DNA from: Candidatus Forterrea multitransposorum CG_2015-17_Forterrea_25_41
GTDB lineage: Archaea > Iainarchaeota > Iainarchaeia > Iainarchaeales > CSSED10-239
Length of the DNA: 64,000 bases
Assembly: GCA_009392915.1 (NCBI GenBank)
Contig: CP045477.1
Location: 640,001 to 704,000 of the forward strand
Reading direction: 5' to 3'
Below, piece by piece: positions 8,340-37,796 of this stretch; the stretch's first letter is position 1; the number at the start of each line of letters is the position of its first letter. The notes beneath the pieces were generated by a model, which had not been told where the DNA came from, made no database searches, and was given only the letters and a program-made list of their open reading frames with translations. The position numbers and the translations under genes were made by a program.

Positions 8340-8564
8340 TTAATTCTTTGAAGAAAGTTTATATGCAGCACCTGCTATTTCAGTTTTACATTTTGAACAT
8401 GTAAATATAGCAGAATCTCTTTTTGAAATTCTTCCCTTATATCCACAATTAGGACATACATAAGAAGATTTATCTGTTTTAGTTGCAAGAAGATATTTTT
8501 GTCTAATTCCTCTTCCGCCTCTAACACCATATTTTCCGGTTTCTTTTACTTTTTTTGTAGCCAT
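8340..8564 (-). CDS. rpl37ae: ribosomal protein L37Ae (eL43)
   Basis: MATKKVKETGKYGVRGGRGIRQKY...YVCPNCGYKGRISKRDSAIFTCSKCKTEIAGAAYKL is the canonical eL43 Zn-ribbon. Confidence 0.85.
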   Translation of the reverse strand: MATKKVKETGKYGVRGGRGIRQKYLLATKTDKSSYVCPNCGYKGRISKRDSAIFTCSKCKTEIAGAAYKLSSKN

Positions 8565-8576
8565 TTTAAATCACAT

Positions 8577-9383
8577 TTATTCTAAAGCCTCTATTTTTTT
8601 TAAAATTTCATTGTATTTATTTACAGAAATATCAACCATTGTAAAAATTTCTTCTTCAGTAAAAACACCATTTTTACTTTTTTGACAAGAAACAACAGTA
8701 TCTTTTACAAGACCTAAACTAAATCTTGCATCTGAAGCATATTCTTCTGATTCTGTAGGATCAACAATTATTTTTCCTTCAATTTTTTCAAAAGTAAAAC
8801 TTAAAGGAATATTTAAAAGTTCTAATTTTTTATCAGAATATTCTTTTGAAATAATATTATTTTTTTCATCAAGTTTTGGTATCTTAGCGTTTTTTAAAGC
8901 TGCAAGAGCTGCAATTTCAGTTGCATCAATTAAATTACCATCAGCATTAATTGCAATACAATCAACGAAAATAATAAATACTTTTTCTCCTGCGACAATT
9001 GAAAGTTTTTTAAAATCTATTGCTTCTGCAGATCTTATTGCTCTATCAGCAACTCTTCCATACTCAAGAGCATCTATTTGTGGAGGACCTGTTGAAAAAT
9101 CAGGAGAAGAAATTCCAGTAAGCTCTAAGTTAAGAGACATGCTTCCTTCATCTGGAGAATCTGGATATGGTGTTCCTACTGCAAATTTAATTCCAGCAAC
9201 AATTTCTGTTTTTCCAAGTTTAACCCAAGCAGAACCATCTGCTGAAGACAAAACTGAAGTTTTAATTTCAAGATCTCTAAAATCTTCAAATCCTCTATTA
9301 TCTTCTCTTTTTCCATTTTTTATTTTTTCTTTAATGCTTCCCGCATTAATTAAATTTAATATATCACTCATTAATATCACCAT
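8577..9383 (-). CDS. rrp42: exosome complex RNase PH-like subunit Rrp42
   Basis: RNase PH fold (ADGSAWVKLGKTEIVAGIK...). Non-catalytic partner directly downstream of Rrp41, overlapping it by ~20 nt. Confidence 0.85.
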   Translation of the reverse strand: MVILMSDILNLINAGSIKEKIKNGKREDNRGFEDFRDLEIKTSVLSSADGSAWVKLGKTEIVAGIKFAVGTPYPDSPDEGSMSLNLELTGISSPDFSTGPPQIDALEYGRVADRAIRSAEAIDFKKLSIVAGEKVFIIFVDCIAINADGNLIDATEIAALAALKNAKIPKLDEKNNIISKEYSDKKLELLNIPLSFTFEKIEGKIIVDPTESEEYASDARFSLGLVKDTVVSCQKSKNGVFTEEEIFTMVDISVNKYNEILKKIEALE

Positions 9384-10068
9384 TTACAGGGTATTTTTCA
9401 AGTAAAGCATTCTTTTGAAGAGCATATACTTTTTCTGCAGCTGAAAAACCCATTGAAACCATTTTTTTCCAATCGTCTTTGTTTACAAAACCATCCATTT
9501 GTAAAAGAGCAATTTCTTTTTGAGGCATAGTAATTGCAATTGCAGTGTCAACTGCATCAGGTGCATCTTCTTCATCTTTAGTTAAATCATAGATTAAATC
9601 TCCATTTGCTCTTCCAATAGCAACCGCTGAAACTAAACCTTTCATTGGAAGACCTGCATCTGCACATGCTAAAGAAGCTGCTGTTAAAGCTGCAACTCTT
9701 GTACCTGCATCAGCTGAAAGAATTAATGTGTTTACATTAATAACTGTGTTTGGAAATTTTTCAGTCATAATAACAGATTCTAAAGCAAAACCTGAAACTA
9801 AAGAAATTTCTTTATCTCTTTTTCCAGGAACTGGAGATTTTCTATCAGAAACTGAAAAAGGAGCCATTCTATATCTATAATCTACAACTGCTCTTTGAGA
9901 ATTTGACAAATGTTTTGGAAACATTGGTCTTGGTCCGTGAACTGTTGCAACAACTGTGTTTTTACCCCATTCAAGATAACATGAACCAGCAGCACTTTTT
10001 ACAACTCCAAGTTCTATCTTGATTGGTCTTAAATCATCTTTTTTTCTACCATCTAATCTTGTACTCAT
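9364..10068 (-). CDS. rrp41: exosome complex catalytic subunit Rrp41 (RNase PH)
   Basis: MSTRLDGRKKDDLRPIKIELGV...AAGSCYLEWGKNTVVATVHGPR...LSADAGTRVAALTAASLACADAG carries the RNase PH signatures. Confidence 0.9.
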   Translation of the reverse strand: MSTRLDGRKKDDLRPIKIELGVVKSAAGSCYLEWGKNTVVATVHGPRPMFPKHLSNSQRAVVDYRYRMAPFSVSDRKSPVPGKRDKEISLVSGFALESVIMTEKFPNTVINVNTLILSADAGTRVAALTAASLACADAGLPMKGLVSAVAIGRANGDLIYDLTKDEEDAPDAVDTAIAITMPQKEIALLQMDGFVNKDDWKKMVSMGFSAAEKVYALQKNALLEKYPVNGDINE

Positions 10069-16047: not shown

Positions 16048-17640
16048 TTAATTTCCTGTGTTGTTAGAAGATAAATTTGTGTATGCTTCTTCTAATTCCT
16101 GAATTTCATCTTGATAATTTAAAGATACAAGATCATATACTGTTTGAACTCCTAAAACAGGATTTAATTCAAATAATTTTCTATTAACATCTAAAGAAAT
16201 ATTTTGATCTTCAGAACATTTTAAGAAAAGTATAGGGAATATTGAAAAAACATCATTTGTAACTAAAGGTTTAATTACAAGATTTATTTTATCAGAATAT
16301 AAATATTCTTCATAAAATTCATCTGTTAAAGTTTCTTTTTCAAATTGATTACAATAAGGACAATCATAATCTGTGAAAAGAACAACTGAAACAGGTGCAT
16401 CTTCTGTACCAATTAATTTATCTGATTCTTTAATAATTGAAGAATAATCTAATATTTTATAGATACCATCAATACCACTACCTAAAGCAAGTTGAGGGAA
16501 AACATCTTCTCTTAAGATATATCCATTGTTAACAGTTTCTTCTTTAAAGATTAAATTAAAAATATCTTTATTTTCAGAACCATTAAAATCAACGGAATTA
16601 ACATCTCCTAAAACATACATTGCAGGTAATGTATTTGAACCAATAGTTTCTAAAATTTCAATTCCTAATTCAGAATCGTATTGTACATATTCAACATCTA
16701 AATCAAATAAAACAGAGAAAATAGAATTTACATTTTCAAGTAATAATTCAGAAGTTTTTAAATATTCAATAAACTCTGTATTCTTTTCAGAAATCATTTC
16801 ATTTTCTTTATCGTAAATATAATACATTTTTAATGAATCTTGAGTATATGAAAATGAAGAATTATCATAATTTAGATCTAATGACTCTACGTTTTCTACA
16901 GAATCAATAAACTCTGTAAAAACATTATAATCTTTAAAACCAGATAAATTATATCCATTTACATAGATTGTTGGAGTTGACATTACATATAATTCTTGTG
17001 CTTGTAAGAAATCATTTTGTATTACACTTACTTTTTCATAATCATATAGATTAGAATCTTTTAAAAGATAATTATTTTCTAAAAGACAAGCATCCATTTC
17101 TTCAGAATTAATATTTAAATCTGAATAACTTTCTTCTAAAATTTCTTTTTGATAAGTTCTCATATCAGTTAAAAGAGTTAAAGTTAAGTTTAATGATTTT
17201 TCTTCAAATTCTTCTGCACTCATAGTAACAGTAAAAGTATTTGAATCAATTGTATTTGTGTCAGTTCCATTTAAAGGATCATCATTTGTTTGAACAGGAG
17301 TTATAGGAATTAAAAATGCTAAAGCAATAATTAAAACTATTAAACCAGCTAAAACACCAATAATTACATAATCTCTTTTTTTAGTAGATCTCTTTTTTGA
17401 AACATCTTTATGTTTTTCGTGAGAATGAACTTCAACTTTTGGTTCGTGTTTTTCAATTTCAACTTTTTTAGGTGTTGAAACTTTTTTTGAACTCATCTTC
17501 TTTGGCATTGCCTTTTTTGAAGTAGTTGATTTTTTTTTTGCTTTGTTTTTATTAACATCTAAAACAGTATTTGTATCTTCAAAAACAACTTGTACTTTTT
17601 TTGGAGATTTAGCTTTAGATTTTTTTTTAGTTTTAGCCAA
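16048..17640 (-). CDS. membrane-anchored DsbA-like thiol-disulfide oxidoreductase with poly-Lys cytoplasmic tail
   Basis: The first ~95 aa are ~35% Lys, followed by one TM helix (YVIIGVLAGLIVLIIALAFLI). The extracytoplasmic region carries thioredoxin-fold modules, including DYDCPYCNQFEKE, a DsbA-type CPYC active site. Confidence 0.55.
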   Translation of the reverse strand: MAKTKKKSKAKSPKKVQVVFEDTNTVLDVNKNKAKKKSTTSKKAMPKKMSSKKVSTPKKVEIEKHEPKVEVHSHEKHKDVSKKRSTKKRDYVIIGVLAGLIVLIIALAFLIPITPVQTNDDPLNGTDTNTIDSNTFTVTMSAEEFEEKSLNLTLTLLTDMRTYQKEILEESYSDLNINSEEMDACLLENNYLLKDSNLYDYEKVSVIQNDFLQAQELYVMSTPTIYVNGYNLSGFKDYNVFTEFIDSVENVESLDLNYDNSSFSYTQDSLKMYYIYDKENEMISEKNTEFIEYLKTSELLLENVNSIFSVLFDLDVEYVQYDSELGIEILETIGSNTLPAMYVLGDVNSVDFNGSENKDIFNLIFKEETVNNGYILREDVFPQLALGSGIDGIYKILDYSSIIKESDKLIGTEDAPVSVVLFTDYDCPYCNQFEKETLTDEFYEEYLYSDKINLVIKPLVTNDVFSIFPILFLKCSEDQNISLDVNRKLFELNPVLGVQTVYDLVSLNYQDEIQELEEAYTNLSSNNTGN

Positions 17641-18715: not shown

Positions 18716-19576
18716 ATGGAACTTAATACTGAACTTATAGATGTTTTAAAAACAATTAATAAAGAAAAAGTTATTTGTCTTTTAGCACCAAGCTTTGTTG
18801 TAGATTTTAAATATCCTAAAATAATTTTAGAACTTAGAAGAATTGGTTTTAATAAAATTGTTGAACTTACATATTCTGCAAAATTAATAAATAAAGAAAT
18901 ACACAAACAAATATTAGAAAATAAAAAAAAACAATATATTTGTGGAAACTGCCCTAGTGTTGTTAAATATATTGAAAATAAATATCCAGAACTTAAAAAA
19001 AATATTATGGATATAGCTTCACCTATGGTTATTATGGCAAGATTTATGAAAGAAAAATATCCTAGTCATATAATTGTTTTTGTAGGACCTTGTTTTTCAA
19101 AAAAACAAGAAGCAAAAGAAAACAAAGAAGTTGATTATGCACTTACCTTTAAAGAAATAAATGATATGTTTTTGTATGCTAAAAAAAATGGTTTTTATAA
19201 AAAACAAGAAAATGAAAATAAGCATTTTGATAAATTTTATAATGATTATACAAAGATATACCCTTTATCTGGTGCAGTTGCAGAAACCATGAATACTAGA
19301 GAAATATTAAAACCAGAAGAAATGATTATTGCAGATGGAATTAAAGAAATTGATAAGGCAATTATGAAATTTAAAGAAAATAAAAAAGTAAGATTTCTTG
19401 ACATGCTTTTCTGTACTGGAGGTTGTGTTGGAGGACCTGGCATAATTTCAACAGAAACTATTGAACAAAGAGAAGACAGAGTTATTCATTATAGAGATAA
19501 ATCAAAAAATGAAAAACTTGGAAAAAACTTTGGAAAATTTAAATATGCAGAAAACCTTAGTTTAAAGAGGAAATAA
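18716..19576 (+). CDS. minimal [FeFe]-hydrogenase-like protein (H-cluster domain only)
   Basis: Three H-cluster motifs in order: ICGNCP (L1, cf. TSCCP), VGPCFSKKQEA (L2, cf. MPCxxKKxE), FCTGGCVGGPG (L3, cf. MACxGGCxxGGGQP). The N-terminal APSFVVDF also resembles the H-domain. No N-terminal ferredoxin domains. Confidence 0.55.
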   Translation: MELNTELIDVLKTINKEKVICLLAPSFVVDFKYPKIILELRRIGFNKIVELTYSAKLINKEIHKQILENKKKQYICGNCPSVVKYIENKYPELKKNIMDIASPMVIMARFMKEKYPSHIIVFVGPCFSKKQEAKENKEVDYALTFKEINDMFLYAKKNGFYKKQENENKHFDKFYNDYTKIYPLSGAVAETMNTREILKPEEMIIADGIKEIDKAIMKFKENKKVRFLDMLFCTGGCVGGPGIISTETIEQREDRVIHYRDKSKNEKLGKNFGKFKYAENLSLKRK

Positions 19577-19579
19577 TAA

Positions 19580-19999
19580 TTAAATAGTTAAAGAAAAAAT
19601 AACAGGAGTCTTTGGTTGTTCAGAAATAAATTTTTTTAAAGCAACTTTTAAAAGATTTAAAGTTAAATAAGCACATCTTACTCTTGTTTGTAAAACTCCA
19701 TCTAAATTTTCAATAATTGATTCTGGTTTTAAATTTATAATTTCATCTATTTTTTTATTTAAGGAAAGCTCGGTTGCAATACAGCCCCCTGCTTTTGAAA
19801 TTACACAACCAGAATGAACAAATGAAATATTTTTAACTATCTTTTTGTCTTTTGAGAATTTAACATAAATTGTGACTTTATCACTGCACCCAGAATTATT
19901 ACCTTCTATTTTTATATCAAAAGGCTTTAATACACCATAATTAACTGGGTTTGAATAATAATCTAAAATTATTTGACTAGGGATATAATCATCACTCAT
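19580..19999 (-). CDS. Fe-S cluster scaffold SufU/IscU-like (NifU N-terminal domain)
   Basis: Three conserved Cys (GCSDKV, HSGCVIS, RVRCAYL) in IscU/SufU spacing. Last gene of the suf operon. Confidence 0.75.
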   Translation of the reverse strand: MSDDYIPSQIILDYYSNPVNYGVLKPFDIKIEGNNSGCSDKVTIYVKFSKDKKIVKNISFVHSGCVISKAGGCIATELSLNKKIDEIINLKPESIIENLDGVLQTRVRCAYLTLNLLKVALKKFISEQPKTPVIFSLTI

Positions 20000-20871
20000 A
20001 ATTTATCTTTTATTTTTTTCTCAATATAATTAATTATTTTTTCAGGATAGAAAGAAATATTTGCTTTTAAAAAAGAAGAAACCATTAAGTTATAAGCATT
20101 TTTTTTAGATAAAGATCTTGAAGATAAATAAAATAATTGTTCATCAGTTACATGTTCAACTGTTGCAGCATGAGTTGCTTTAACATTTTTTGGAACTATT
20201 TCAAGCATTGGGACACTAATAGATCTAGAGGTATCTGAAAGAAGCATACTATTTGTTTCAAGATATGCTTTTGAAAAATCACCAGATTTTAAAATGTTAA
20301 TCATTCCATCATATCTTGAAAAAGATTTATTTTTTAATACATTTTTAATTGTTGTATTAGAAATAGTTTCTTTGTAAAGATGATTATTTCTTATATTTAT
20401 ATATGCTTTTTCAGATTTAGATAAAAGTAAAACATCATTTTGATTTAATTGAGAATCTTTTTTTATAAAAGTTTCTTGATTATATTTTAAATTATTTAAA
20501 TCAAAATAAAGATTTGAAATGTAAATAATAGACTTATCTAAAATAAAATTATTATCATAACTAAAATCATTAACTTTAAAATTTCTTATAAGATTTAAAG
20601 ACTTAGTATTTTGAAAATAATAAATAATATTTTTATGTTTTAAATTTTTAAAATCAGAAATTTCAAATAAATTTTTATTAGAAATTTTATTAAAAATTAT
20701 TAAAGAATTATTTTTAATAGAAGAAATATTAAAACTTGAAAAATCTTTAATAGAATCATCTATTAAATAGACATCACTATAATTAGATAGATTAAGTTTA
20801 TCTAAAGTATTTAGAATACTTTTAAAAATTTGTTTTAATTTATAATTATTTAAATTAATTTTTAGAAACAT
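19996..20871 (-). CDS. sufD: Fe-S cluster assembly protein SufD
   Basis: The C-terminus (HAATVEHVTDEQLFYLSSRSL) is paralogous to the SufB C-terminus. Immediately follows SufB. Confidence 0.7.
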   Translation of the reverse strand: MFLKINLNNYKLKQIFKSILNTLDKLNLSNYSDVYLIDDSIKDFSSFNISSIKNNSLIIFNKISNKNLFEISDFKNLKHKNIIYYFQNTKSLNLIRNFKVNDFSYDNNFILDKSIIYISNLYFDLNNLKYNQETFIKKDSQLNQNDVLLLSKSEKAYINIRNNHLYKETISNTTIKNVLKNKSFSRYDGMINILKSGDFSKAYLETNSMLLSDTSRSISVPMLEIVPKNVKATHAATVEHVTDEQLFYLSSRSLSKKNAYNLMVSSFLKANISFYPEKIINYIEKKIKDKL

Positions 20872-20877
20872 ATAAAT

Positions 20878-22323
20878 CTATCCTACAGAATTTTCAAACT
20901 CCATTTCAATTAATCTATTAAGTTCAACTGCATACTCTAAAGGAATTTGTTTTGAAAATTCACTTATAAAACCTAAAATGATTAAAGTAATTGCTTTAGA
21001 TTCATCAATACCTCTTGACATTAAATAAAATAATTGTTCTTCACCTATTCTTCCGACAGTTGCTTCATGAGAAACTTCTGCAGTAGGTTCATCAACAACT
21101 ATTACAGGATAAGTATCAGTCTTACTTATTGAATCAATTAAAATTGCATCACATCTAACATTAGATTTAACATTTTTAAGACCCTTATCTATTCTTACAA
21201 GCCCTCTATATGCTGATTCACCACCATCTTTTGAAATAGATTTTGAAACAATTGTTCCGGTGGTATTATTTGCTTGATGAACAATTTTTGCACCTGCATC
21301 TTGTTTTTGATTTTTTGAAGCAATTGCAATAGATAATACTTCTCCTCTAGAATTATCTCCTTTTAAATAAATTGCAGGATATTTCATTGTTAGTCTTGAA
21401 CCTAAATTACCATCTACCCATTCAACACTTGCATTTTTATAAGCAAAAGCTCTTTTTGTAACTAAATTATAAATATTATTTGCCCAATTTTGAATTGTAG
21501 TGTATCTTATACTAGCACCTTCTAAAGCAATAACTTCAACAACAGCTGCATGCAATGATTGAGTGGAAAATCTTGGAGCTGTACATCCTTCGACATAATG
21601 GATTTTACTACCTTCATCTGCAATTATTAAAGTTCTCTCAAATTGACCCATATTTGAAGAATTAATTCTAAAATATGCTTGAAGAGGAGTATCAACTTTA
21701 ACACCTTTAGGAACATAAACAAAAGAACCTCCTGACCAAACAGCAGAATTAAGAGAAGAAAATTTATTATCATCAATTGGAATTACAGATCCAAAATATT
21801 TTTTTACAAGTTCAGGATATTTTTTTAAACCTTCATCCATGGATAGAAAAACAACACCTTTTTCTTCAAATTCTTTTTTTGTTTTATGATAAATTACTTC
21901 AGAATCATATTGTGCACCAACACCTGCAAGAAAATCTCTTTCAGCTTTTGGAACCCCTATTCTATCAAAAGTTTTTTTAACATCTTTTGGAACATCTTTC
22001 CAATTTGTTTTTTCAGAATCTCCAACTGATGCAAAATAAGTTATATTTTTAAAATCAATTTCTTCAAGTGGCATTATTCCCCAAGAAGGCAATTTTTGTT
22101 TTATAAATGTTTTATAAGCTTTTAATCTAAAATCAAGCATCCATTTAGGTTCTTTTTTTATTTTTGAAATATTTTTTATAACAGTTTCACTTAACCCTTT
22201 ATCAAACTTAATTTTATAATCTTTTGTAGAATATGAAAAGTCATATTTCTTTATTTTTGTAGCTTTCTTAGCTTTTTTTAGAGAAGAATCTTTTACTCTT
22301 CCATCTATTTTATTTCTATTCAT
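20878..22323 (-). CDS. sufB: Fe-S cluster assembly protein SufB
   Basis: 481 aa; conserved SufB core (...HEATVGRIGEEQLFYLMSRGI...). Confidence 0.9.
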   Translation of the reverse strand: MNRNKIDGRVKDSSLKKAKKATKIKKYDFSYSTKDYKIKFDKGLSETVIKNISKIKKEPKWMLDFRLKAYKTFIKQKLPSWGIMPLEEIDFKNITYFASVGDSEKTNWKDVPKDVKKTFDRIGVPKAERDFLAGVGAQYDSEVIYHKTKKEFEEKGVVFLSMDEGLKKYPELVKKYFGSVIPIDDNKFSSLNSAVWSGGSFVYVPKGVKVDTPLQAYFRINSSNMGQFERTLIIADEGSKIHYVEGCTAPRFSTQSLHAAVVEVIALEGASIRYTTIQNWANNIYNLVTKRAFAYKNASVEWVDGNLGSRLTMKYPAIYLKGDNSRGEVLSIAIASKNQKQDAGAKIVHQANNTTGTIVSKSISKDGGESAYRGLVRIDKGLKNVKSNVRCDAILIDSISKTDTYPVIVVDEPTAEVSHEATVGRIGEEQLFYLMSRGIDESKAITLIILGFISEFSKQIPLEYAVELNRLIEMEFENSVG

Positions 22324-22330
22324 AATTTAT

Positions 22331-23098
22331 CTATTTAGACTTTTTTTTATAGTCTTCAATTATTTTTGTAAAACCATTTTTTTCAATATAGTTTGCAAAA
22401 GAACTATCTCCGCTTTTTATAATTTTTCCTTCATACATTACATGTACAAAATCTGGTTTTAAAAAATCAAGTATTTTTTTATAGTGTGTAATTACAATTG
22501 CAGAAAATTCTTTATTTTCTTTTTTTAAATTATTTATAGAATTACAAACAAGCTTTAAAGAATCAATATCAAGACCAGAATCAGTTTCATCTAAAATTGC
22601 AAGTTTAGGTTTTAATAAATTAAGTTGTAAAATTTCAGCACGTTTTTTTTCTCCACCAGAAAAACCAACATTTAAATCTCTAGATAAAAAATTTTCTGGC
22701 ATGTTTAAAAGAGAAATTCTTTCTTTAACTAAAGTATTAAACTTTAATGGAGAAATTCTTTCTTGATGAGTTGAAGAAAAAGAATTTTTTAAAAAAGAAA
22801 AATAATTAAGACCTTGAATCTCTAAAGGAGATTGAAAAGATAAAAATATTCCTTCTCTTGCTCTCTTGTCAACAGATAATTTTAATAAATCTTTTTCTAA
22901 AAATTTTATTTTTCCAGAAGATATTCTATACTTAGGATGACCCATAATAGAGTATGCAAGAGTTGATTTTCCAGAACCATTTGGCCCCATAATTGCATGA
23001 ATCTCTTGATTTTTTACATCTAAGTTAAAGTTATTTAAAATTTGTTTCTCTTCAACAGAAACTGATAAATTTTTTATAGAAATTAAATTTTTAGCCAT
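22331..23098 (-). CDS. sufC: Fe-S cluster assembly ATPase SufC
   Basis: ABC ATPase with Walker A GPNGSGKST, signature FSGGEKKR, Walker B ILDETDSGLD, and the SufC-specific C-terminus. Confidence 0.9.
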   Translation of the reverse strand: MAKNLISIKNLSVSVEEKQILNNFNLDVKNQEIHAIMGPNGSGKSTLAYSIMGHPKYRISSGKIKFLEKDLLKLSVDKRAREGIFLSFQSPLEIQGLNYFSFLKNSFSSTHQERISPLKFNTLVKERISLLNMPENFLSRDLNVGFSGGEKKRAEILQLNLLKPKLAILDETDSGLDIDSLKLVCNSINNLKKENKEFSAIVITHYKKILDFLKPDFVHVMYEGKIIKSGDSSFANYIEKNGFTKIIEDYKKKSK

Positions 23099-28617: not shown

Positions 28618-28929
28618 ATGAACTGCGCATCATATTATTTTTTTAATGTAATCTCAAACGAGACCAGATGGAAAATCATTAATTCTTTATATGAATCAGA
28701 TAAGTTTGTAACAGACATCTGTAAAGATATTAATGAAGAACAATCAAAGGTTAGCCATAATTTAAAAATACTTCTTGAATGTAATGTTGTTTTTTCTCAA
28801 AGACAAGGAAAATATATTAAATATTCCTTGAATAAAAAAACCATTAAACCACTTATTAAGATATTAAATGATCATATGAAAAATTTTTGTGGTGGAAAAT
28901 GTAAAAGAAATGTAATTGAGAAAAAATGA
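28618..28929 (+). CDS. ArsR/SmtB-family winged-helix transcriptional regulator
   Basis: A 103-aa wHTH (ETRWKIINSLYESDKFVTDICKDINEEQSKVSHNLKILLECNVV) with a C-terminal Cys cluster (CGGKC). Overlaps the downstream cysteine desulfurase start by 4 nt. Confidence 0.55.
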   Translation: MNCASYYFFNVISNETRWKIINSLYESDKFVTDICKDINEEQSKVSHNLKILLECNVVFSQRQGKYIKYSLNKKTIKPLIKILNDHMKNFCGGKCKRNVIEKK

Positions 28930-30050
28930 ATACTAAATATTTTGATTATGCATCAACTTGTCCTGTGGATACTAGAGTTCTTGAAAAAATGAAGCCTTAT
29001 TTTTCAGAAAACTTTGCAAATACCTCAAGCATGCATTCTTTTGGTGAAAAAATAAAAGATGAAGTTGAAAATGCAAGAGAAGAAATTTTAAAAAAAATAA
29101 ATGGTATTAACCATAAACTAATATTTACTTCTGGAGGAACAGAAAGTAATAACCTAGCCCTTAAAGGAATTGCAGAAACCTATAGAGAAAAAGGAAATCA
29201 TATTTTAATAAGTAAAATAGAACATGATTCAATTTTAAATTCTGCAAAATATCTTAAAACAAAAGGATATGAAATTGAGTATATTGAAAATGATTCAGAA
29301 GGATTAATTGACTTAGAAGACTTAAAACAAAAGATTAGAAAAGATACAATTTTAGTTTCAATAATTCATGGAAATAATGAAATTGGAACTTTACAAGATC
29401 TTGAAAAGATTGGAGAAATTTGTAAAGAAAAAGAAGTTTTTTTCCATACTGATGCATGTCAAAGCTTCTGTAAAAGTGAAATTGATCTTGAAAAACAAAA
29501 TATTGATCTAATAACAATTAATGCACATAAAATATATGGCCCTAAAGGTATAGGTGCGCTAATTATTAAAAAAAATATTAACCTAACTCCTCTTTTTCAT
29601 GGAGGAGGACATGAAAATAATTTAAGAAGCGGAACTTTAAATGTACCTGGTATAATTGGTCTTAGAGAAGCAATAAAATCTTTAGATAAAGAAGAACTCT
29701 TAAGAGAAAAAAAATTAAGAAATTATATTTTTTCAGAAATTGAAAACATTAATTCAATTAAAATATTAGGATCAAAAGAAAACAGACTTGTAAACAATGT
29801 TTGTTTATTATTTGAAAATATTGAATCAGAATCAATTCTTTTATCTTTAGACTTAAAAGGATTTTATGTTTCAACAGGTTCTGCATGTCTTTCAAATAAT
29901 AATGAAAAAAGTCATGTTGTTTCAGCACTAAAAGTTTTAAAAAATAAAAAAAATGGAATCTTAAGAATTTCTTTAGGTAAAGAAAATACTTTAGAAAGCA
30001 CTAAAGAATTAATTATTGAAATTAAAAAAACAATTGAAAAATTTGATTAA
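28926..30050 (+). CDS. cysteine desulfurase (IscS/NifS class)
   Basis: PLP-binding Lys context (HKIYGPKGIGAL) and active-site Cys (STGSACLSNN); 374 aa. Confidence 0.85.
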   Translation: MNTKYFDYASTCPVDTRVLEKMKPYFSENFANTSSMHSFGEKIKDEVENAREEILKKINGINHKLIFTSGGTESNNLALKGIAETYREKGNHILISKIEHDSILNSAKYLKTKGYEIEYIENDSEGLIDLEDLKQKIRKDTILVSIIHGNNEIGTLQDLEKIGEICKEKEVFFHTDACQSFCKSEIDLEKQNIDLITINAHKIYGPKGIGALIIKKNINLTPLFHGGGHENNLRSGTLNVPGIIGLREAIKSLDKEELLREKKLRNYIFSEIENINSIKILGSKENRLVNNVCLLFENIESESILLSLDLKGFYVSTGSACLSNNNEKSHVVSALKVLKNKKNGILRISLGKENTLESTKELIIEIKKTIEKFD

Positions 30051-30052
30051 CT

Positions 30053-30268
30053 ATGAAAATAACTTCAGAAACAAAATTAAAAGAACTTCTTGAAAGAGAA
30101 GATATTTTTGAAATATTAATGGCACACGGTTTTCCATGTGTAACTTGCCCAATGGCAAGAATGGAAATGGATATTCTAGAAATTGGTGCTGTTTGTGAAA
30201 TGTATGGTATTGATCAAATATCTTTACTTGAAGATTTAAATGAATTTTTAGAAAAAAAGGAGAAATAA
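30053..30268 (+). CDS. DUF1858 (ScdA_N-like) redox-disulfide domain protein
   Basis: 71 aa. HGFPCVTCPMARMEMDILEIGAVCEMYGIDQISLLEDLNEFL matches the DUF1858 pattern (HG..C.GCP.A..ET.E.AA..HGID...LL..LN). Confidence 0.6.
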   Translation: MKITSETKLKELLEREDIFEILMAHGFPCVTCPMARMEMDILEIGAVCEMYGIDQISLLEDLNEFLEKKEK

Positions 30269-30271
30269 TTT

Positions 30272-30841
30272 ATGAAATTAAAATATTTATTTATAATTAT
30301 GGTGCTTGTAACCATTTTTTCAAACACAGTCTTTTCAGAAGATGTAAATGTTGATATTAATCAGAATGTAATAATTGATATAAACCAAGAAACAAAAATA
30401 AACGTTTATTTCTTTGGAACTTCAACTTGCCCTTACTGTGCTCAGGAAAAAGAATTTTTCACAGAATATGTTAAAAATAATCCAGATGTAAGAGTTTATT
30501 ATTTTGAACTTGATACTCAAAGAAATAATTCAAAACTATTACTTGAATTTTCAAAAGCTTTTCAAGAAAGAAGCACAAGTGTGCCTATAACTTTCATTTC
30601 AGAGAAAGTATGGATTGGCTTTTCTGAAAGTATACAAGGACAAATGGAAACAATAATTAATAATTGTAGAGAAAACACTTGTAAGGATTCTTATACACTT
30701 CTTGAAAATCAAGAAGAATTTAGAGAATACTTAACTAATGACAAGTATGTTAAATATCTTGGAGAAGAAATTAAAAAAGAGAAAACAGACAAAATTGGTT
30801 TTTTTGAAAGAATAGTTACTTTCTTTAAAAATATATTTTAA
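30272..30841 (+). CDS. secreted glutaredoxin/thioredoxin-like protein (CPYC)
   Basis: Sec signal peptide MKLKYLFIIMVLVTIFSNTVFS, then a Trx-fold with VYFFGTSTCPYCAQEKEF. Paralogous to the N-terminal module of the next gene. Confidence 0.6.
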   Translation: MKLKYLFIIMVLVTIFSNTVFSEDVNVDINQNVIIDINQETKINVYFFGTSTCPYCAQEKEFFTEYVKNNPDVRVYYFELDTQRNNSKLLLEFSKAFQERSTSVPITFISEKVWIGFSESIQGQMETIINNCRENTCKDSYTLLENQEEFREYLTNDKYVKYLGEEIKKEKTDKIGFFERIVTFFKNIF

Positions 30842-30906
30842 ATATATTTAAAACATTATTCATATATAATATTATTAAAACAATAATTAAAATAAGAGAT
30901 GACTAA

Positions 30907-32595
30907 ATGAATTTTAAAAAAATTATACTTTTTATTTTTTTATTTTTAATAATTACAACAACATATATAGGTAGTGTTTCAGCTCTTGAACAAAAAGAAG
31001 TAAACATCTATTTCTTTGGAACCTCAACATGTCCTTACTGTGCTCAAGAAAAAGCTTTTTTAAAAGATTTTGTAAATGAAAATATAAATGTCACTGTTAA
31101 CTATTACGAGCTTGACAAACAAAAAGAAGCATCTAAACTATTACTTGAGCTTGGAGAAGAATTTAATCAAAGAACAACAAATGTACCTTTAACTTTTATA
31201 TCTGACAAATCATGGATTGGTTTTTCAGAAAATATAAAACAAGAAATAATAAATCAAGTAAATGATTGTTCTCAAAACGAATGTAAAGATACTATTAATT
31301 TTCTTAATGAACCTAAATTCTGGGAAAAATATACAACAGATAAAGAATATGTAACAATAATTGAATCTGATAAAAAAGAAACTAGTTTTGAAAAACCAGA
31401 AATTGAAGATGTTTATGTTCATTTATTCTATGTGCCTGATTGTGCACAATGTCTTAATACTTTAGAATATTTTAAATATATTGAAAGTAAATACCCATTT
31501 ATAATTACAGAAAAATATAATCTTTTAGATCCAAAAAATAAAGAACTTTTTGAAGAATATAAAAATTTATATTCTCTACAAGTTGAAATTTTTCCAATAG
31601 TATTTATTGGAGAAACATATATTAGTGGAGAAACAAATATTAAAAATAATCTTGACAAAGAAATTGATAGATGTTATAACACAGACATTAATTGTTCATG
31701 TCCTGAAAAAACAATTCTCTCAAAAACAAATAAAATACCTTCTTCAGAAGAATATGTTTCTGGAGAAGAAAATAAAAAAATTAGTTTTTTTGGAAAACAA
31801 ATCGATCTTGGAAATAAATCTTTATTTTTAAATACTTTAATTATTGCTTTTGTTGATGGGTTAAACCCTTGCTCTTTATGGGTTTTAATGTTTCTATTAA
31901 GTATTGTTGTTTATTCTGGTTCAAGAAAGAAAATATTTTTAATAGGTATAACTTTTTTAGCAGTTACAGCAATTATTTATGGTTTATTTATAACAAGTGT
32001 TTTAAATGCTTTAATTTTCTTTTATAGTCCAATTATAAAAGTTATAATTGTTCTTGTAGCAGTTATTTTTGGACTAATAAACATTAAAGATTATTTTTGG
32101 TATAAAAAAGGAATTTCTTTAACTATATCTGAAAAAGAAAAACCTAAAATCTATGATAAGATAAGAAACATAATGAATCCTAAAAATAGTTTATTTGCAA
32201 TTATGTTAGGAACAATAATCTTAGCTGGAGGAGTTACAATTTTAGAAATTCCATGTACAGCAGGGCTACCTTTGCTTTGGGCAAACATGATTGCAAACAG
32301 TACTCTTTCAAGTACAGGATATTATCTTCTTTTAGGAATATATATGATTATTTATTTGTTAGATGAAATAGTTTTATTCTCAATAGCTATATTTACTTTG
32401 AAGATATCTAAGATGGAAGAAAAACATGGAAAGGTCTTAAAATTATTTAGTGGGCTTTTAATCTTTGGTATTGGTGTTTCCTTTGCAGTTGCAGATAAAT
32501 TTATGCAAAGTATTTTAGGAATATTACTATTAACAATAGGTTCTATTCTTTTAACATATATAATAAACAAAATATATACAAAATATAAAAAGTGA
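30907..32595 (+). CDS. fusion of secreted thioredoxin-like domains (CPYC + CAQC) with a DsbD/CcdA-type transmembrane thiol-disulfide transporter
   Basis: Signal peptide; module 1 IYFFGTSTCPYCAQEK; module 2 FYVPDCAQCL. The C-terminal polytopic domain carries the two conserved DsbD/CcdA cysteines in TM helices (GLNPCSLWVL and LEIPCTAGLPL). Confidence 0.65.
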   Translation: MNFKKIILFIFLFLIITTTYIGSVSALEQKEVNIYFFGTSTCPYCAQEKAFLKDFVNENINVTVNYYELDKQKEASKLLLELGEEFNQRTTNVPLTFISDKSWIGFSENIKQEIINQVNDCSQNECKDTINFLNEPKFWEKYTTDKEYVTIIESDKKETSFEKPEIEDVYVHLFYVPDCAQCLNTLEYFKYIESKYPFIITEKYNLLDPKNKELFEEYKNLYSLQVEIFPIVFIGETYISGETNIKNNLDKEIDRCYNTDINCSCPEKTILSKTNKIPSSEEYVSGEENKKISFFGKQIDLGNKSLFLNTLIIAFVDGLNPCSLWVLMFLLSIVVYSGSRKKIFLIGITFLAVTAIIYGLFITSVLNALIFFYSPIIKVIIVLVAVIFGLINIKDYFWYKKGISLTISEKEKPKIYDKIRNIMNPKNSLFAIMLGTIILAGGVTILEIPCTAGLPLLWANMIANSTLSSTGYYLLLGIYMIIYLLDEIVLFSIAIFTLKISKMEEKHGKVLKLFSGLLIFGIGVSFAVADKFMQSILGILLLTIGSILLTYIINKIYTKYKK

Positions 32596-32603
32596 AAGAA
32601 TCC

Positions 32604-32945
32604 TTAACTTAGGATTCTTTTATCTATTTCTGAAATTTTATCTCTAACATCTTCATTTAATCTATCATAATCTCTTTCAATATTTGAAGGAACATCTTTT
32701 TTTGAAATATTATCTGAGATTGAATGTTGAAGATAAGAAATATCTTTCTTTAAAGCAGTTAAGTCTTCTCTATCTAAAGAATTTAAAGAAATTGAAAGAA
32801 GTCTTTGTAATTTTCTAATATCCGTTACAATTTTTGATAAAGAAACTGGAGAATCATTACCTCTTTGATTATAAGAATAATTTGTTGAGCCTTTTGACCA
32901 AGAAAAACTATCTTTTGATTTTATATTAGCCATATTTTTTAACAC
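32604..32945 (-). CDS. hypothetical protein
   Basis: 113 aa, predicted helical, no motif recognised. Confidence 0.3.
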   Translation of the reverse strand: MLKNMANIKSKDSFSWSKGSTNYSYNQRGNDSPVSLSKIVTDIRKLQRLLSISLNSLDREDLTALKKDISYLQHSISDNISKKDVPSNIERDYDRLNEDVRDKISEIDKRILS

Positions 32946-33711: not shown

Positions 33712-33999
33712 ATGACAAAAGAAAATAAAAAAATTGGTGGAGTTTTAGAAGGTGGAACTTCTAAACAATACAGTACTGGTAACTGGAGACATAAAAAACC
33801 AATCTGGGATTCTAAAAGATGTGTTCAGTGTATGTTGTGCTATGTTTATTGCCCTGATAATTGTATTTTAGTAAAAAAAAATAAAGATGGTAAGCTTGTA
33901 AGAACAGAAACAGACTTAGAGTTTTGTAAAGGTTGTGGAATCTGTGAAAAAGTATGCCCTGTTAAATGTATAAAGATGGTTGAAGAAGACAAAGAATGA
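33712..33999 (+). CDS. porD: pyruvate:ferredoxin oxidoreductase delta subunit (2x[4Fe-4S] ferredoxin)
   Basis: Two CxxCxxCxxxCP motifs (CVQCMLCYVYCP, CKGCGICEKVCP). Confidence 0.85.
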   Translation: MTKENKKIGGVLEGGTSKQYSTGNWRHKKPIWDSKRCVQCMLCYVYCPDNCILVKKNKDGKLVRTETDLEFCKGCGICEKVCPVKCIKMVEEDKE

Positions 34000-34577
34000 T
34001 TCTAATGAACTTTATTGAAGAATTAAATCAAATAGAAACAATCATCAAAGTAAAAGAAAGCAAAAGAAAAAGTATTGTTGAAGAAAGATATGAAAGTTCT
34101 GCAGAACACACTTTTGGATGTATTCTTTTAGCACAATATTTTTTAAAAAAAATACCAGATAAATTAGATGAATTAAAAATATTAAAATTATTAAGTTACC
34201 ATGATATTCAAAATATCTATTTTGAAGATATAAATATAACAGATGAAAATTGGAAAAATAAAAAAAATCTTGAAAAAATAGCACATGAAAAAACAATTAA
34301 GACAATTCCAAAAGAAATATCTGAAGAATATAAGACACACTACATAGAATTTGAAGAATTAAAAACAAAAGAATCCAAATTTGCAAAAGCCATTGATGTT
34401 TTAGAACCAGTAATACACGCTAGCAATCATAAAGAACATTGGATAAGAGGAAACTGGAAGGAATCAGATTTAAGAAAACATAAAGAAAAATATTTAACCG
34501 AATTTCCAATATTAATGGAATTCTTTAATGAATTTGTAAATTATGCAAAAGAAAATAATTATTTTATAAAAGAATAG
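33996..34577 (+). CDS. HD-domain phosphohydrolase (YfbR-like 5'-deoxynucleotidase family)
   Basis: SSAEHTFGCILLA (H), LLSYHDIQNIYFEDI (HD), ...FAKAIDVLEPVIHA (D) in YfbR-like spacing. Overlaps porD by 4 nt and ends 13 nt before porA. Confidence 0.6.
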   Translation: MILMNFIEELNQIETIIKVKESKRKSIVEERYESSAEHTFGCILLAQYFLKKIPDKLDELKILKLLSYHDIQNIYFEDINITDENWKNKKNLEKIAHEKTIKTIPKEISEEYKTHYIEFEELKTKESKFAKAIDVLEPVIHASNHKEHWIRGNWKESDLRKHKEKYLTEFPILMEFFNEFVNYAKENNYFIKE

Positions 34578-35762: not shown

Positions 35763-37796
35763 ATGAACTATATTGAACTTGCAAGTAAAATTGAAGAAAG
35801 AAAAGCTATTGTTCCTGGACATAGAACTTGTCCTGGGTGTCCTATAGCCATTATCTTAAGAACAGCATATGCTGCAACTGATAAAAAAATAATAACATCA
35901 TCTGCTACATCCTGTGCAGAAGTTACAACAACAATTTATCCTTACACCTCATGGAATGAACCTTGGATTCATTCTGTTTTTGCAAATGCTGCAGCAACCA
36001 TATCTGGTGTTGAAACTGCTTATAGAGCTTTAAAGAAAAAAGGAAAGATAAAAGAAGAAATTAAATTTATGGCTTTTGCTGGAGATGGTGGAGCTTTTGA
36101 TATTGGACTTCAGAGCCTTTCAGGAGCTCTTGAAAGAGGACATGATTTTGTTTTTGTTTGTTACGATAACGAAGGTTACCAAAACTGTTTATCAATAGAT
36201 TCATTAATAATGACAGAAACAGGTCTTAAAAAAATAACTGAAATTAAAAAAGGAGAGAAAGTCTGGGCTTTTGATCAAAATAAACATTTGCCGGTACTAA
36301 AAGAATGTACAGGGGTCTTTAATAATGGAAGAAAAAGAGTATACGAAATAGAAACTATACATCAAAATATAAAAGCAACATCAAACCACCCATTCTTAAC
36401 TTTAAAAAGAAACGGTAGAGGAAAAGAAAACGAGCTTATCTGGAAAACAGTTTCTCAATTAAAGGTAAATGATGAAATTGTAACTATGAGAAAACTTTAT
36501 GATAAAGGAAAAGCATATGAATTTAATAAAATAAAGCTAACTAAAAAAGGCGATTATAAAGTAAATATTATTAATGATGTTAAGCTTCCAGAAAAATCTA
36601 CAAAAGAATTAATGTTATGGCTAGGTTTATATGTTGGAGATGGATGGATTAGAGAAGAAAGAGGAGAAATTGGATTTGCTCTTCCAGAAAATACAGAAGA
36701 GAGAAAAATACTTCTTAAGATCCATAAGAAAATATTTGGACAAGAAAATAAATCTAAAGATAAATATTACATATACTATAATTCTGTAAATATTTCAAAA
36801 TTTATTAATTCCTTAGGGTTTATGCAAGGTGCTAAAAATAAAACAATACCATCTTGGGTTTTTACTTTACCAATAGATCAAAAAGAAGAATTTGTAAAAG
36901 GTTTATTAATGTCTGATGGATATATTTATAAAAAGAAAAAAGATAGTTGTAGATATTTATCAGCAAGCAAAGAATTAATTAAAAGATTAAGACTTTTACT
37001 TCAAACAATGGATTACAGAGTAGGAAAAATAACTATTCAGAAAAAACCAAAAGGAACTTTTGTAGTTTATAGAGAAATGTTAAATGATGGAGAATACTAT
37101 AGTATTTGTTTTAGTAAAAAAGACAAATGGGATGTTAAAAAATACCCTAACCAATACAAATATCAAAATTATTTTATTGAAAATGAATATTTTGAAACAA
37201 GAAAAATAAAAAATATTATTCCTAGAGGAATTGAACAAACATTAGATTTAAGAGTTGATGGAGAACACAACTTTATTGCAGATGGAATTGTTGTTCATAA
37301 CACAGGAGCACAACGATCCTCTGCAACACCTTATGGAGCTTCAACAACTACCACTCCTGGAGAGAAAAAAGAATTTCAAAAAGATCTTGCAAGGATAGCT
37401 ATTGCTCATAAAATACCATATGTTGCAACTGCAAACCCAGGAAATCTTTTAGACATGCATGAAAAGTTTAGAAAGGCTTTTGAAAAGAAAGGGCCAGCTG
37501 TAATCATTGTTTATGCAGCATGCCCTACAAACATGAAGGCTCCTGAAGACTTAACTATTGATATTTCAAAGCTTGCAACTGAAACTAATTTTTGGCCACT
37601 TTATGAAGTTGAAGATGGAAAATATAAAGTAAACTATAAGCCTGCAAATAAAAAACCTATTGAAGAATTTTTAAAAATGCAAACTAAGTTTAAAGAAGTT
37701 TTAAAAGATAAAAATGAAATTAAAAAAATACAACAAGAAATAGATGATGATTTTAAAGAACTTCTAAAAATGGAAGAAGCTTTTCCTTTAAAATAA
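35763..37796 (+). CDS. porB: pyruvate:ferredoxin oxidoreductase beta subunit, interrupted by an in-frame intein
   Basis: Exteins give a normal ~305-aa PorB. N-extein carries the TPP-binding CPGC / GDGG; the conserved YxNTGxQxSxxTPxGAxTxTTP motif is split as ...YDNEGYQN|[intein]|TGAQRSSATPYGASTTTTPGE. Confidence 0.85.
   Translation: MNYIELASKIEERKAIVPGHRTCPGCPIAIILRTAYAATDKKIITSSATSCAEVTTTIYPYTSWNEPWIHSVFANAAATISGVETAYRALKKKGKIKEEIKFMAFAGDGGAFDIGLQSLSGALERGHDFVFVCYDNEGYQNCLSIDSLIMTETGLKKITEIKKGEKVWAFDQNKHLPVLKECTGVFNNGRKRVYEIETIHQNIKATSNHPFLTLKRNGRGKENELIWKTVSQLKVNDEIVTMRKLYDKGKAYEFNKIKLTKKGDYKVNIINDVKLPEKSTKELMLWLGLYVGDGWIREERGEIGFALPENTEERKILLKIHKKIFGQENKSKDKYYIYYNSVNISKFINSLGFMQGAKNKTIPSWVFTLPIDQKEEFVKGLLMSDGYIYKKKKDSCRYLSASKELIKRLRLLLQTMDYRVGKITIQKKPKGTFVVYREMLNDGEYYSICFSKKDKWDVKKYPNQYKYQNYFIENEYFETRKIKNIIPRGIEQTLDLRVDGEHNFIADGIVVHNTGAQRSSATPYGASTTTTPGEKKEFQKDLARIAIAHKIPYVATANPGNLLDMHEKFRKAFEKKGPAVIIVYAACPTNMKAPEDLTIDISKLATETNFWPLYEVEDGKYKVNYKPANKKPIEEFLKMQTKFKEVLKDKNEIKKIQQEIDDDFKELLKMEEAFPLK
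36186..37301 (+). mobile_element. intein with LAGLIDADG homing endonuclease (372 aa) in porB
   Basis: Begins CLSIDSL (block A Cys1) and has block B ATSNHPF (TxxH). Two LAGLIDADG motifs (LWLGLYVGDGWI, FVKGLLMSDGYI). Ends ...NFIADGIVVHN with +1 Thr. Boundaries were mapped codon by codon. Confidence 0.8.

Follow-up and report, generated by a model that had tools for sequence, protein, structure and literature searches.

We analysed five consecutive genes in a stretch of 64,000 nucleotides from 'Candidatus Forterrea multitransposorum' (contig CP045477.1, positions 640,001 to 704,000; hereafter the window, whose own numbering is used throughout; G+C content about 24%). In the window lineage, the genes are best read as two adjacent functional units. 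Unit 1 (28618-30268), comprising an ArsR regulator, a cysteine desulfurase and a DUF1858 protein, is best read as serving sulfur mobilisation and Fe-S assembly. Unit 2 (30272-32595) consists of a secreted CPYC protein and a large fusion of thioredoxin-fold domains with a membrane domain, and its best reading is a transmembrane thiol-disulfide relay that acts like DsbD/CcdA. This two-unit arrangement, with a reductive DsbD-like relay in Unit 2, is the explanation that we favour for the whole region and that we consider probable, short of firm. The list of open reading frames (ORFs) shows exactly five genes here, all on the plus strand, at 28618-28929, 28926-30050, 30053-30268, 30272-30841 and 30907-32595. 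They encode 103, 374, 71, 189 and 562 amino acids (aa), respectively, and are spaced by -4, +2, +3 and +65 nucleotides (nt). An earlier sequence-only reading of this DNA had described five co-directional, tightly spaced genes, and the ORF list confirms that description. Four of the genes (ArsR left out) were compared with their counterparts in a related locus, L003, and are under purifying selection (dN/dS 0.12-0.17). The fusion of L003 is 79% identical to that of the window, and the nearest named relative, 'Candidatus ainarchaeum sp.' (Iainarchaeota, DPANN), carries a fusion gene with 93% identity.

The first gene of Unit 2 (30272-30841, plus strand) encodes a secreted glutaredoxin-fold protein of 189 aa with a signal-type hydrophobic segment at residues 3-25 and a CPYC motif formed by Cys53 and Cys56 (codons 30428-30439). 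Its score against the Pfam Glutaredoxin model, 20.1 bits, lies under the gathering score of 22.9. The protein and fusion domain 1 are paralogs that share 48% identity over 134 aa (E 2e-41). The fusion itself starts with a signal peptide (residues 1-26, MNFKKIILFIFLFLIITTTYIGSVSA; 30907-30984, plus strand) predicted from hydropathy, which the AlphaFold2 (AF2) model renders as a helix at residues 3-20 followed by a low-confidence linker at 22-27. Hydropathy thus assigns one N-terminal signal-type hydrophobic segment to each of the two exported proteins. Domain 1 (30988-31341, plus strand), an exported domain of thioredoxin/glutaredoxin fold, matches Glutaredoxin with 33.3 bits; its CPYC motif is formed by Cys42 and Cys45 (codons 31030-31041), and a further pair, Cys121/Cys126, is conserved. 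Domain 2 (31399-31710, plus strand), an exported thioredoxin-fold domain recognised by PDB thioredoxin profile matches at positions 143-230, contains a CAQC motif (Cys179 and Cys182, codons 31441-31452) followed by the conserved Cys256, Cys263 and Cys265 (C-x6-C-x-C). When domain 2 alone was scanned against Pfam and NCBIfam at E<=10, nothing useful was found; in the AF2 model it adopts a beta-alpha-beta fold with a predicted local distance difference test (pLDDT) score of ~95. The hallmarks of thioredoxins and glutaredoxins are present, namely a beta-alpha-beta fold whose helix 1 begins with a CxxC, and a conserved cis-Pro loop. The cysteines of domain 2 are conserved in 47-49 of the 49 two-domain homologs, and all eleven cysteines of the window fusion are kept family-wide.

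Two close relatives show a natural variation of this architecture. In L007 (10484-11788) and L088 (~8484-9779), which are 93-94% identical to the window, the fusion has 434 aa and no domain 1: the signal peptide is joined in frame straight to the CAQC domain, and the free CPYC paralog is retained. This natural deletion means that domain 1 is dispensable. It would also fit an interchangeable role of domain 1 and the free paralog, because both loci delete the former and keep the latter. Recoding of UGA as selenocysteine was considered as the source of the shorter fusions and rejected, since the in-frame join of signal peptide and domain 2 represents a clean deletion.

The remainder of the 562-aa fusion (residues ~293-562; 31783-32592, plus strand) is a seven-helix membrane domain of DsbD/CcdA fold. 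It contains Cys322 in the sequence NPCSLW of transmembrane helix 1 (TM1; codon 31870-31872) and Cys450 in the sequence EIPCTAG of TM4 (codon 32254-32256). The family motifs around them are G-[FL]-N-P-C-S-L-W and E-x-[PS]-C-T-A-G, and both cysteines are invariant (72/72 and 121/121 homologs). An hhalign comparison of the family with E. coli DsbD paired C322 with C182 and C450 with C304, the known catalytic pair in precursor numbering, at a non-significant E value of 0.038. A global profile-profile alignment with a three-sequence CcdA/DsbD profile (the canonical CcdA proteins of loci L031 and L069 and the membrane domain of E. coli DsbD) gave an E value of 0.0023, again with both cysteines in register. 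After the CcdA sequence of PDB 5VKV had been added to this profile, the local score was 26.0, whereas none of 30 column shuffles scored above 18.9 and the reversed profile reached 12.8. The AF2 models had a pLDDT of 85.9 for the full-length protein, and of 85.2 with a predicted template modelling score (pTM) of 0.80 for the membrane domain alone. The modelled domain forms the pseudo-symmetric helical bundle typical of the CcdA-type fold, and CcdA was its best structural match, a moderate one.

The distribution of charged residues bears on the orientation of the protein. Family means for lysine plus arginine were 7.8 in loop 3-4, 1.9 in loop 5-6 and 8.3 in the C-terminal tail, versus 0.01, 0.19 and 0.4 in the alternate loops. 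The topology predicted from these values is N-out and C-in with seven helices, which places the thioredoxin domains outside the cell. Together, the signal peptide, the two thioredoxin folds ahead of TM1 and the positive-inside statistics are as expected for a thioredoxin-like acceptor that is exported and faces the outside. In its fold and in the geometry of its cysteines, the membrane domain belongs to the DsbD/CcdA superfamily as a distant member, and by sequence it is a separate family. Much of what the sequence-only reading had claimed for Unit 2 held up. The two CPYC modules are indeed paralogous, and the order of signal peptide, CPYC domain, CAQC domain and membrane domain is as it described, according to the profile matches, AF2 and hydropathy. 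The topology and signal-peptide check that it had called for found signal-type segments on both exported proteins and, by loop charges, thioredoxin domains outside. Alignment of the membrane cysteines with the DsbD/CcdA catalytic pair had been set beforehand as a test, and they proved to be in register, with weak statistics. As for the 'DsbD/CcdA-type' conduit, the fold and the cysteine positions bear the name out, but a match to a curated sequence model does not.

The family to which the membrane domain belongs is large. At 50% identity it comprises 2,449 clusters when matches with E<=1e-3 are counted and 1,150 when the limit is E<=1e-10, and it occurs in at least 535 species-representative genomes, among them genomes of DPANN, the candidate phyla radiation (CPR), Chloroflexi (including the cultured Pelolinea and Longilinea), Bipolaricaulota and one actinobacterium. 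Some source databases already label homologs as 'CcdA/glutaredoxin'. In two Anaerolineae genomes, a canonical CcdA gene (L031, 481-1158; L069, 7955-8872) is located directly upstream of a family member. Because the two coexist side by side, canonical CcdA and the family are distinct paralogous lineages, and the family is a large unannotated sister family of canonical DsbD/CcdA.

To describe the gene neighbourhoods, ORFs were called in 81 genome loci, and the neighbours within 6 kb of the fusion gene were clustered without prior labels and annotated afterwards; 26 metagenome loci formed a second, independent set. The most frequent neighbour in the genome loci was GcvH (23/81), always directly downstream of the fusion gene on the same strand. 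The two genes mostly overlap by 1 to 59 nt, with a largest gap of 49 nt, and the lipoyl-lysine motif of GcvH is conserved. The GcvH-type lipoyl carrier is therefore the dominant partner of the family, translationally coupled to the fusion in DPANN and CPR relatives. The sequence-only reading made no mention of this lipoyl module, which is absent from the window. Other neighbours were ArsR (located 5' of the fusion gene) and the secreted paralog (17 loci each), LplA (13), a flavoprotein of the Cys42 type closest to CoA-disulfide reductase (10), lipoyl synthase (9), the cysteine desulfurase (6) and a C-terminal subunit of LplA (6). Among the metagenome loci, 10 of the 26 have the order fusion, GcvH, secreted paralog, flavoprotein, LipA, LplA and LplA_C, and an eleventh has GcvH in third place. 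These lipoyl operons lie outside any glycine-cleavage context, and an AhpD-like CMD protein is sometimes present. In six loci (L008, L010, L014, L019, L026 and L033), the flavoprotein is replaced, 3' of GcvH, by TusA, a YeeE-type sulfur transporter, DsrE, DsrE and DsrH, sometimes with a DGC-domain protein and DUF169; by its gene content this variant recalls the genes for sulfur relay that surround LbpA in sulfur oxidisers. In Chloroflexi and Bipolaricaulota, the versions with a single thioredoxin domain are not linked to GcvH. In a neighbour-joining tree of the membrane domains, the window clade is sister to the GcvH-linked L004 and nested among GcvH-linked clades, and the absence of the GcvH module from the window is for this reason regarded as a secondary loss or relocation.

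From these features the following scheme for the relay may be proposed. A cytoplasmic dithiol would reduce a disulfide that Cys322 of TM1 and Cys450 of TM4 form in the interior of the membrane domain, and the reduced pair would pass electrons to the tethered exported CAQC and CPYC domains. The exported domains of the fusion would in turn keep the secreted CPYC paralog reduced, and the latter could act on cysteines of surface proteins by reduction, isomerisation or repair. DsbD, CcdA and ScsB rely on two membrane cysteines in similar positions to transfer electrons from thioredoxin in the cytoplasm to a thioredoxin-like domain outside (PMC3322552). It is by analogy with that known behaviour of the superfamily that we suggest the direction in which electrons flow, the order in which the exported domains act and the substrates. 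In the relatives, electrons would pass from NAD(P)H through the flavoprotein to lipoyl-GcvH, then to the membrane pair and the exported domains; this chain is the simplest, since every product of the operon is, or makes, a thiol-disulfide component. Judging from gene content, we infer that the ancestral cytoplasmic donor was dihydrolipoyl-GcvH reduced by NAD(P)H, and not thioredoxin. Stand-alone lipoyl-GcvH proteins with redox roles have precedent (PMC12440151, PMC6067878). Literature searches returned no description of GcvH or lipoyl groups coupled to DsbD/CcdA, or tied to DPANN. Uptake of lipoate as the role of the membrane protein was judged unlikely, since many of the operons encode lipoyl synthase. 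For the window lineage, a thioredoxin encoded elsewhere and the adjacent DUF1858 protein are candidates for the present donor. We tentatively suggest, at somewhat less than an even chance, that the family is a lipoate-driven transmembrane disulfide reductase in DPANN and CPR, and that the window lineage is in effect a natural knock-out in which the donor module has gone and another donor, possibly DUF1858, has taken over. Under this reading, lipoic acid would have a role in organisms without its classical enzymes.

Another gene of the window encodes a protein with a CPYC motif, the third found. The 530-aa product of this gene (16048-17640, minus strand) has an N-terminal tail rich in lysine and a single transmembrane helix; its long exported part ends in a DsbA-like Thioredoxin_4 domain (64 bits) containing the motif. 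This protein is a candidate substrate or partner of the relay.

Comparison with characterised systems shows where the window fusion departs from them. With CcdA (T. thermophilus PDB 5VKV; Rhodobacter, Bacillus) its membrane domain has no significant sequence match. CcdA has the motif PCxxP, whereas the window domain has NPCSLW and E-x-PCTAG. Relative to CcdA, the window protein also adds a seventh helix and a cytoplasmic tail rich in lysine and arginine; two exported thioredoxin domains are fused to its N-terminus, and its cytoplasmic loops (NIKDYFWYKKG, EEKHG) are strongly conserved. In E. coli DsbD and in ScsB, an immunoglobulin-like alpha domain at the N-terminus precedes 8 helices, and a thioredoxin gamma domain forms the C-terminus. 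The window fusion, in contrast, has no alpha domain, carries both thioredoxin folds at the N-terminus, has 7 helices after the signal peptide and ends in a short cytoplasmic C-terminus; it does not show the alpha-beta-gamma architecture of DsbD proper. Moreover, the donor in the relatives appears to be lipoyl-GcvH rather than thioredoxin. The alpha domain of ScsB was considered as a counterpart of the tandem thioredoxin folds and rejected, as that domain consists of immunoglobulin folds. Tandem thioredoxin folds with two CxxC sites are likewise found in PDO of P. furiosus (1A8L) and in the N-terminal domain of AhpF, which were the top, weak Foldseek matches (E 2e-3 to 4e-3). PDO and AhpF are soluble proteins of the cytoplasm, whereas the window domains lie outside the cell, attached to a conduit in the membrane. 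The operon of the relatives, in which a GcvH-like lipoyl protein is encoded with its own LplA and lipoyl synthase, resembles the S. aureus GcvH-L operon and LbpA of the sHdr sulfur-oxidation pathway. The mycobacterial Lpd-DlaT-AhpD-AhpC relay is a further lipoyl redox system. None of these three lipoyl systems is known to be linked with a cysteine conduit in the membrane or with thioredoxin domains outside the cell.

The genes of Unit 1 have a different character. The first (28618-28929, plus strand) encodes an ArsR/SmtB-type transcriptional regulator of 103 aa (HTH_5, 6.9e-10; NF033788, 60.4 bits versus a cut-off of 55), and its stop codon overlaps the start of the desulfurase gene by 4 nt. 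Possibly, ArsR controls both units. The second gene (28926-30050, plus strand) encodes an IscS/NifS-type cysteine desulfurase of 374 aa, a class V aminotransferase (Aminotran_5, 2.9e-81). The class V aminotransferase fold, the pyridoxal phosphate-binding lysine (...NAHKIYGPKG...) and the catalytic cysteine loop (...STGSACLS...) are present. The protein exceeds the cut-off of PRK02948 (IscS subfamily; 308.7 versus 304); its 407 bits against NifS TIGR03402 are under the equivalog cut-off, and the IscS equivalog cut-off is likewise not reached. The third gene (30053-30268, plus strand) encodes a small cytoplasmic protein of 71 aa with a marginal match to DUF1858 (PF08984, 33.9 bits versus a gathering score of 32.2) and no hydrophobic segment detectable by hydropathy. 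It contains a CVTC motif (Cys29 and Cys32, codons 30137-30148), kept as CVTC or CISC in four orthologs, and scores 41.3 bits against TIGR03980, 'redox disulfide domain', under the cut-off of 44.95. DUF1858 also forms the N-terminal domain of the iron-centre repair protein ScdA/YtfE.

A set of Fe-S assembly genes (SufC, SufB, SufD and NifU_N, SufU/IscU-like; 19580-23098, minus strand) is located 6 kb upstream of the desulfurase gene, and this proximity suggests that the desulfurase serves that machinery. In L004, an IscU gene with an intein lies between the desulfurase and DUF1858 genes. Known cases of DUF1858 include its fusion to the Fe-S maturation factor SufT (PMC4982691) and its occurrence as a CxxU selenoprotein (PMC9312934). 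We regard ArsR, the desulfurase and DUF1858 as an Fe-S/sulfur unit because of the nearby SufCBD-SufU genes, the IscU of L004, and the SufT and CxxU precedents. The adjacency of these genes to the fusion is inconstant. The desulfurase is near the fusion gene, though not always adjacent to it, in the 6 genome loci noted above, and DUF1858 occurs in 5 of the 107 genome and metagenome loci (the window, L003, L004, L007 and L088). The complete five-gene set is kept only in the window's lineage, in L003, L007 and L088; L004 has extra genes within it. The sequence-only reading had treated the five genes as one neighbourhood, and such co-conservation is not borne out: the desulfurase association is sparse, that of DUF1858 is confined to five close loci, and both are restricted to the window's own lineage. 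Its link of the desulfurase and DUF1858 to sulfur and Fe-S chemistry stands, but their membership in a conserved redox cluster does not, Fe-S assembly near SufCBD-SufU being the better fit.

A number of results weigh against a DsbD-like relay beside a separate Fe-S unit. The hhalign statistics are weak, with probabilities of 1-5%, and the small profiles of three and four sequences brought a modest gain only. The membrane domain has no match to any Pfam or NCBIfam model at E<=10, including PF02683 (DsbD_TM). None of 55 family members scanned singly matched PF02683, two weak DsbD_2 and two faint SfLAP matches being found; as a control, the canonical CcdA of L031 matches NF001419 at 1.5e-26 and PDB 5VKV at 1.1e-10. 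A membrane-only family profile searched against PDB sequences gave one spurious match and did not retrieve CcdA. Searches of PDB sequences with the full-length profile returned thioredoxin-fold matches only, and Foldseek against the PDB returned thioredoxin-fold and tandem-thioredoxin matches, without recovering the nuclear magnetic resonance structure of CcdA. The DsbD superfamily includes transporters, such as the ArsG permease, whose model is matched by a canonical CcdA. The family consensus CPHC is also the motif of the oxidase DsbA, and electrons might accordingly flow in the other direction. By tblastn, the 64-kb window contains no GcvH, LplA, LipA or flavoprotein reductase, and GcvH of L004, used as a query, found no homolog on any contig of >500 kb in a word-index search that is suggestive only. 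Neither a thioredoxin or thioredoxin reductase nor a thioredoxin-reductase-like CxxC ORF was seen in the window, and these searches thus revealed no electron source for the window organism. Finally, the co-direction and tight spacing of all five genes are also compatible with a single integrated pathway.

In such an integrated pathway, the desulfurase and DUF1858 would work within the redox system, for example with DUF1858 as the cytoplasmic donor in place of thioredoxin or GcvH, or with the membrane relay providing the desulfurase with reduced cysteine or sulfur. The gene layout, with spacings of -4, +2 and +3 nt from ArsR to the secreted paralog and then 65 nt to the fusion, agrees with this idea, as does the persistence of the arrangement in L003, L004, L007 and L088. 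The CxxC of DUF1858 is of a redox type, as its CxxU selenoprotein forms and the name of TIGR03980 indicate, and the absence of the GcvH module from the window means that a donor is needed. A sulfur theme also recurs in other relatives, where TusA, YeeE and DsrE/DsrE/DsrH occupy the same position. Nevertheless, the restriction of DUF1858 to five related loci speaks against the pathway, and the sister locus L004 has DUF1858 and GcvH together, so that the one has not replaced the other there. In addition, lineages without DUF1858 show the same invariance in the cytoplasmic loops of the membrane domain, and the known ties of DUF1858 are with Fe-S maturation, as in the SufT fusion and the IscU gene beside it in L004. 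We consider a single integrated pathway unlikely, and prefer two units.

The direction of electron flow allows another alternative, in which the relay is an oxidative pathway that substitutes for DsbB/VKOR in quinone-less organisms. The exported CPYC/CPHC domains would then oxidise secreted proteins, with electrons moving inward through Cys450 and Cys322; in the relatives the acceptor would be lipoyl-GcvH, followed by the flavoprotein and NAD+ or O2. In keeping with this possibility, CPHC is the family consensus for both domain 1 and the secreted paralog, weak matches to the DSBA, TraF and TrbB models were obtained, and no DsbB- or VKOR-like membrane CxxC protein is encoded in the window. The flavoprotein falls in the CoA-disulfide-reductase/NADH-oxidase group, and transfer from dihydrolipoyl groups to NAD+ is the normal direction in 2-oxoacid dehydrogenases. 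By textbook potentials, however, electrons leaving protein dithiols, at about -120 to -220 mV, would have to move uphill to reach lipoamide at -290 mV or NAD+ at -320 mV. Furthermore, all characterised members of the DsbD superfamily act reductively (PMC3322552), and the probability that we assign to an oxidative pathway is quite low. A third proposal, in which the membrane domain would carry small molecules or metal(loid)s as a transporter of the wider LysE/DsbD superfamily, with accessory thioredoxin domains that handle the substrate and with ArsR sensing it, could draw on the recurrence of ArsR, on the ArsR, Thioredoxin_3 and ArsP_1 permease genes just upstream in many relatives, on the weak matches of a few family members to the clan relatives SfLAP and DsbD_2, and on the canonical CcdA match to the ArsG arsenical permease model, so that the fold can transport, but it is very improbable against the electron-relay signature (invariant mid-membrane cysteines in the pseudo-symmetric TM1 and TM4, CxxC domains outside and a dithiol carrier coupled inside), the lack of any visible metal-binding motif and a downstream operon in the relatives composed entirely of thiol-disulfide components.

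Some further features of the loci should be recorded. In L010, L014, L017, L019, L035, L040, L097 and L103, the genes upstream of the fusion are ArsR, Thioredoxin_3 (of the redox-active disulfide protein 2 type) and the ArsP_1 permease, a triplet to which genes for a small ferredoxin and for a secreted 213-aa protein without annotation are sometimes added. The gene following the fusion in the window is a 113-aa ORF on the minus strand (32604-32945), kept in L003, L007 and L088-L090 (81-117 aa), without a family match and at the position held by GcvH elsewhere. Genes of pyruvate:ferredoxin oxidoreductase come next. An HD-domain gene (HD_3/YfbR-like; 33996-34577, plus strand) separates those for the delta and alpha subunits of this enzyme and is absent there in L003. 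The beta subunit gene (35763-37796, plus strand) contains an intein with a LAGLIDADG endonuclease, and the IscU (NifU_N) gene of L004 (4540-6132) also has one. Next to a wyosine radical-SAM gene, a protein of 286 aa (18716-19576, plus strand) comprises nothing but the C-terminal domain found in the large subunit of [FeFe]-hydrogenases (152 bits); instead of a hydrogenase, it may be an Fe-S protein of the Nar1 type.

The window organism thus probably possesses a DsbD-like relay for surface proteins, encoded beside the Fe-S assembly genes and probably not part of them; its action on those proteins may be one of reduction or isomerisation. The evidence points to the Unit 2 fusion being a sequence-divergent and differently built DsbD-like conduit, whose family context hints at an undescribed lipoate-dependent donor. 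The known membrane conduits DsbD, CcdA and ScsB all draw on thioredoxin, and the large family found here has been missed by curated models. If the proposal is true, transporters of this class would have a new electron donor in lipoyl-GcvH, and the coupling would account for the orphan GcvH and lipoylation genes in organisms thought to be without lipoate-dependent metabolism.

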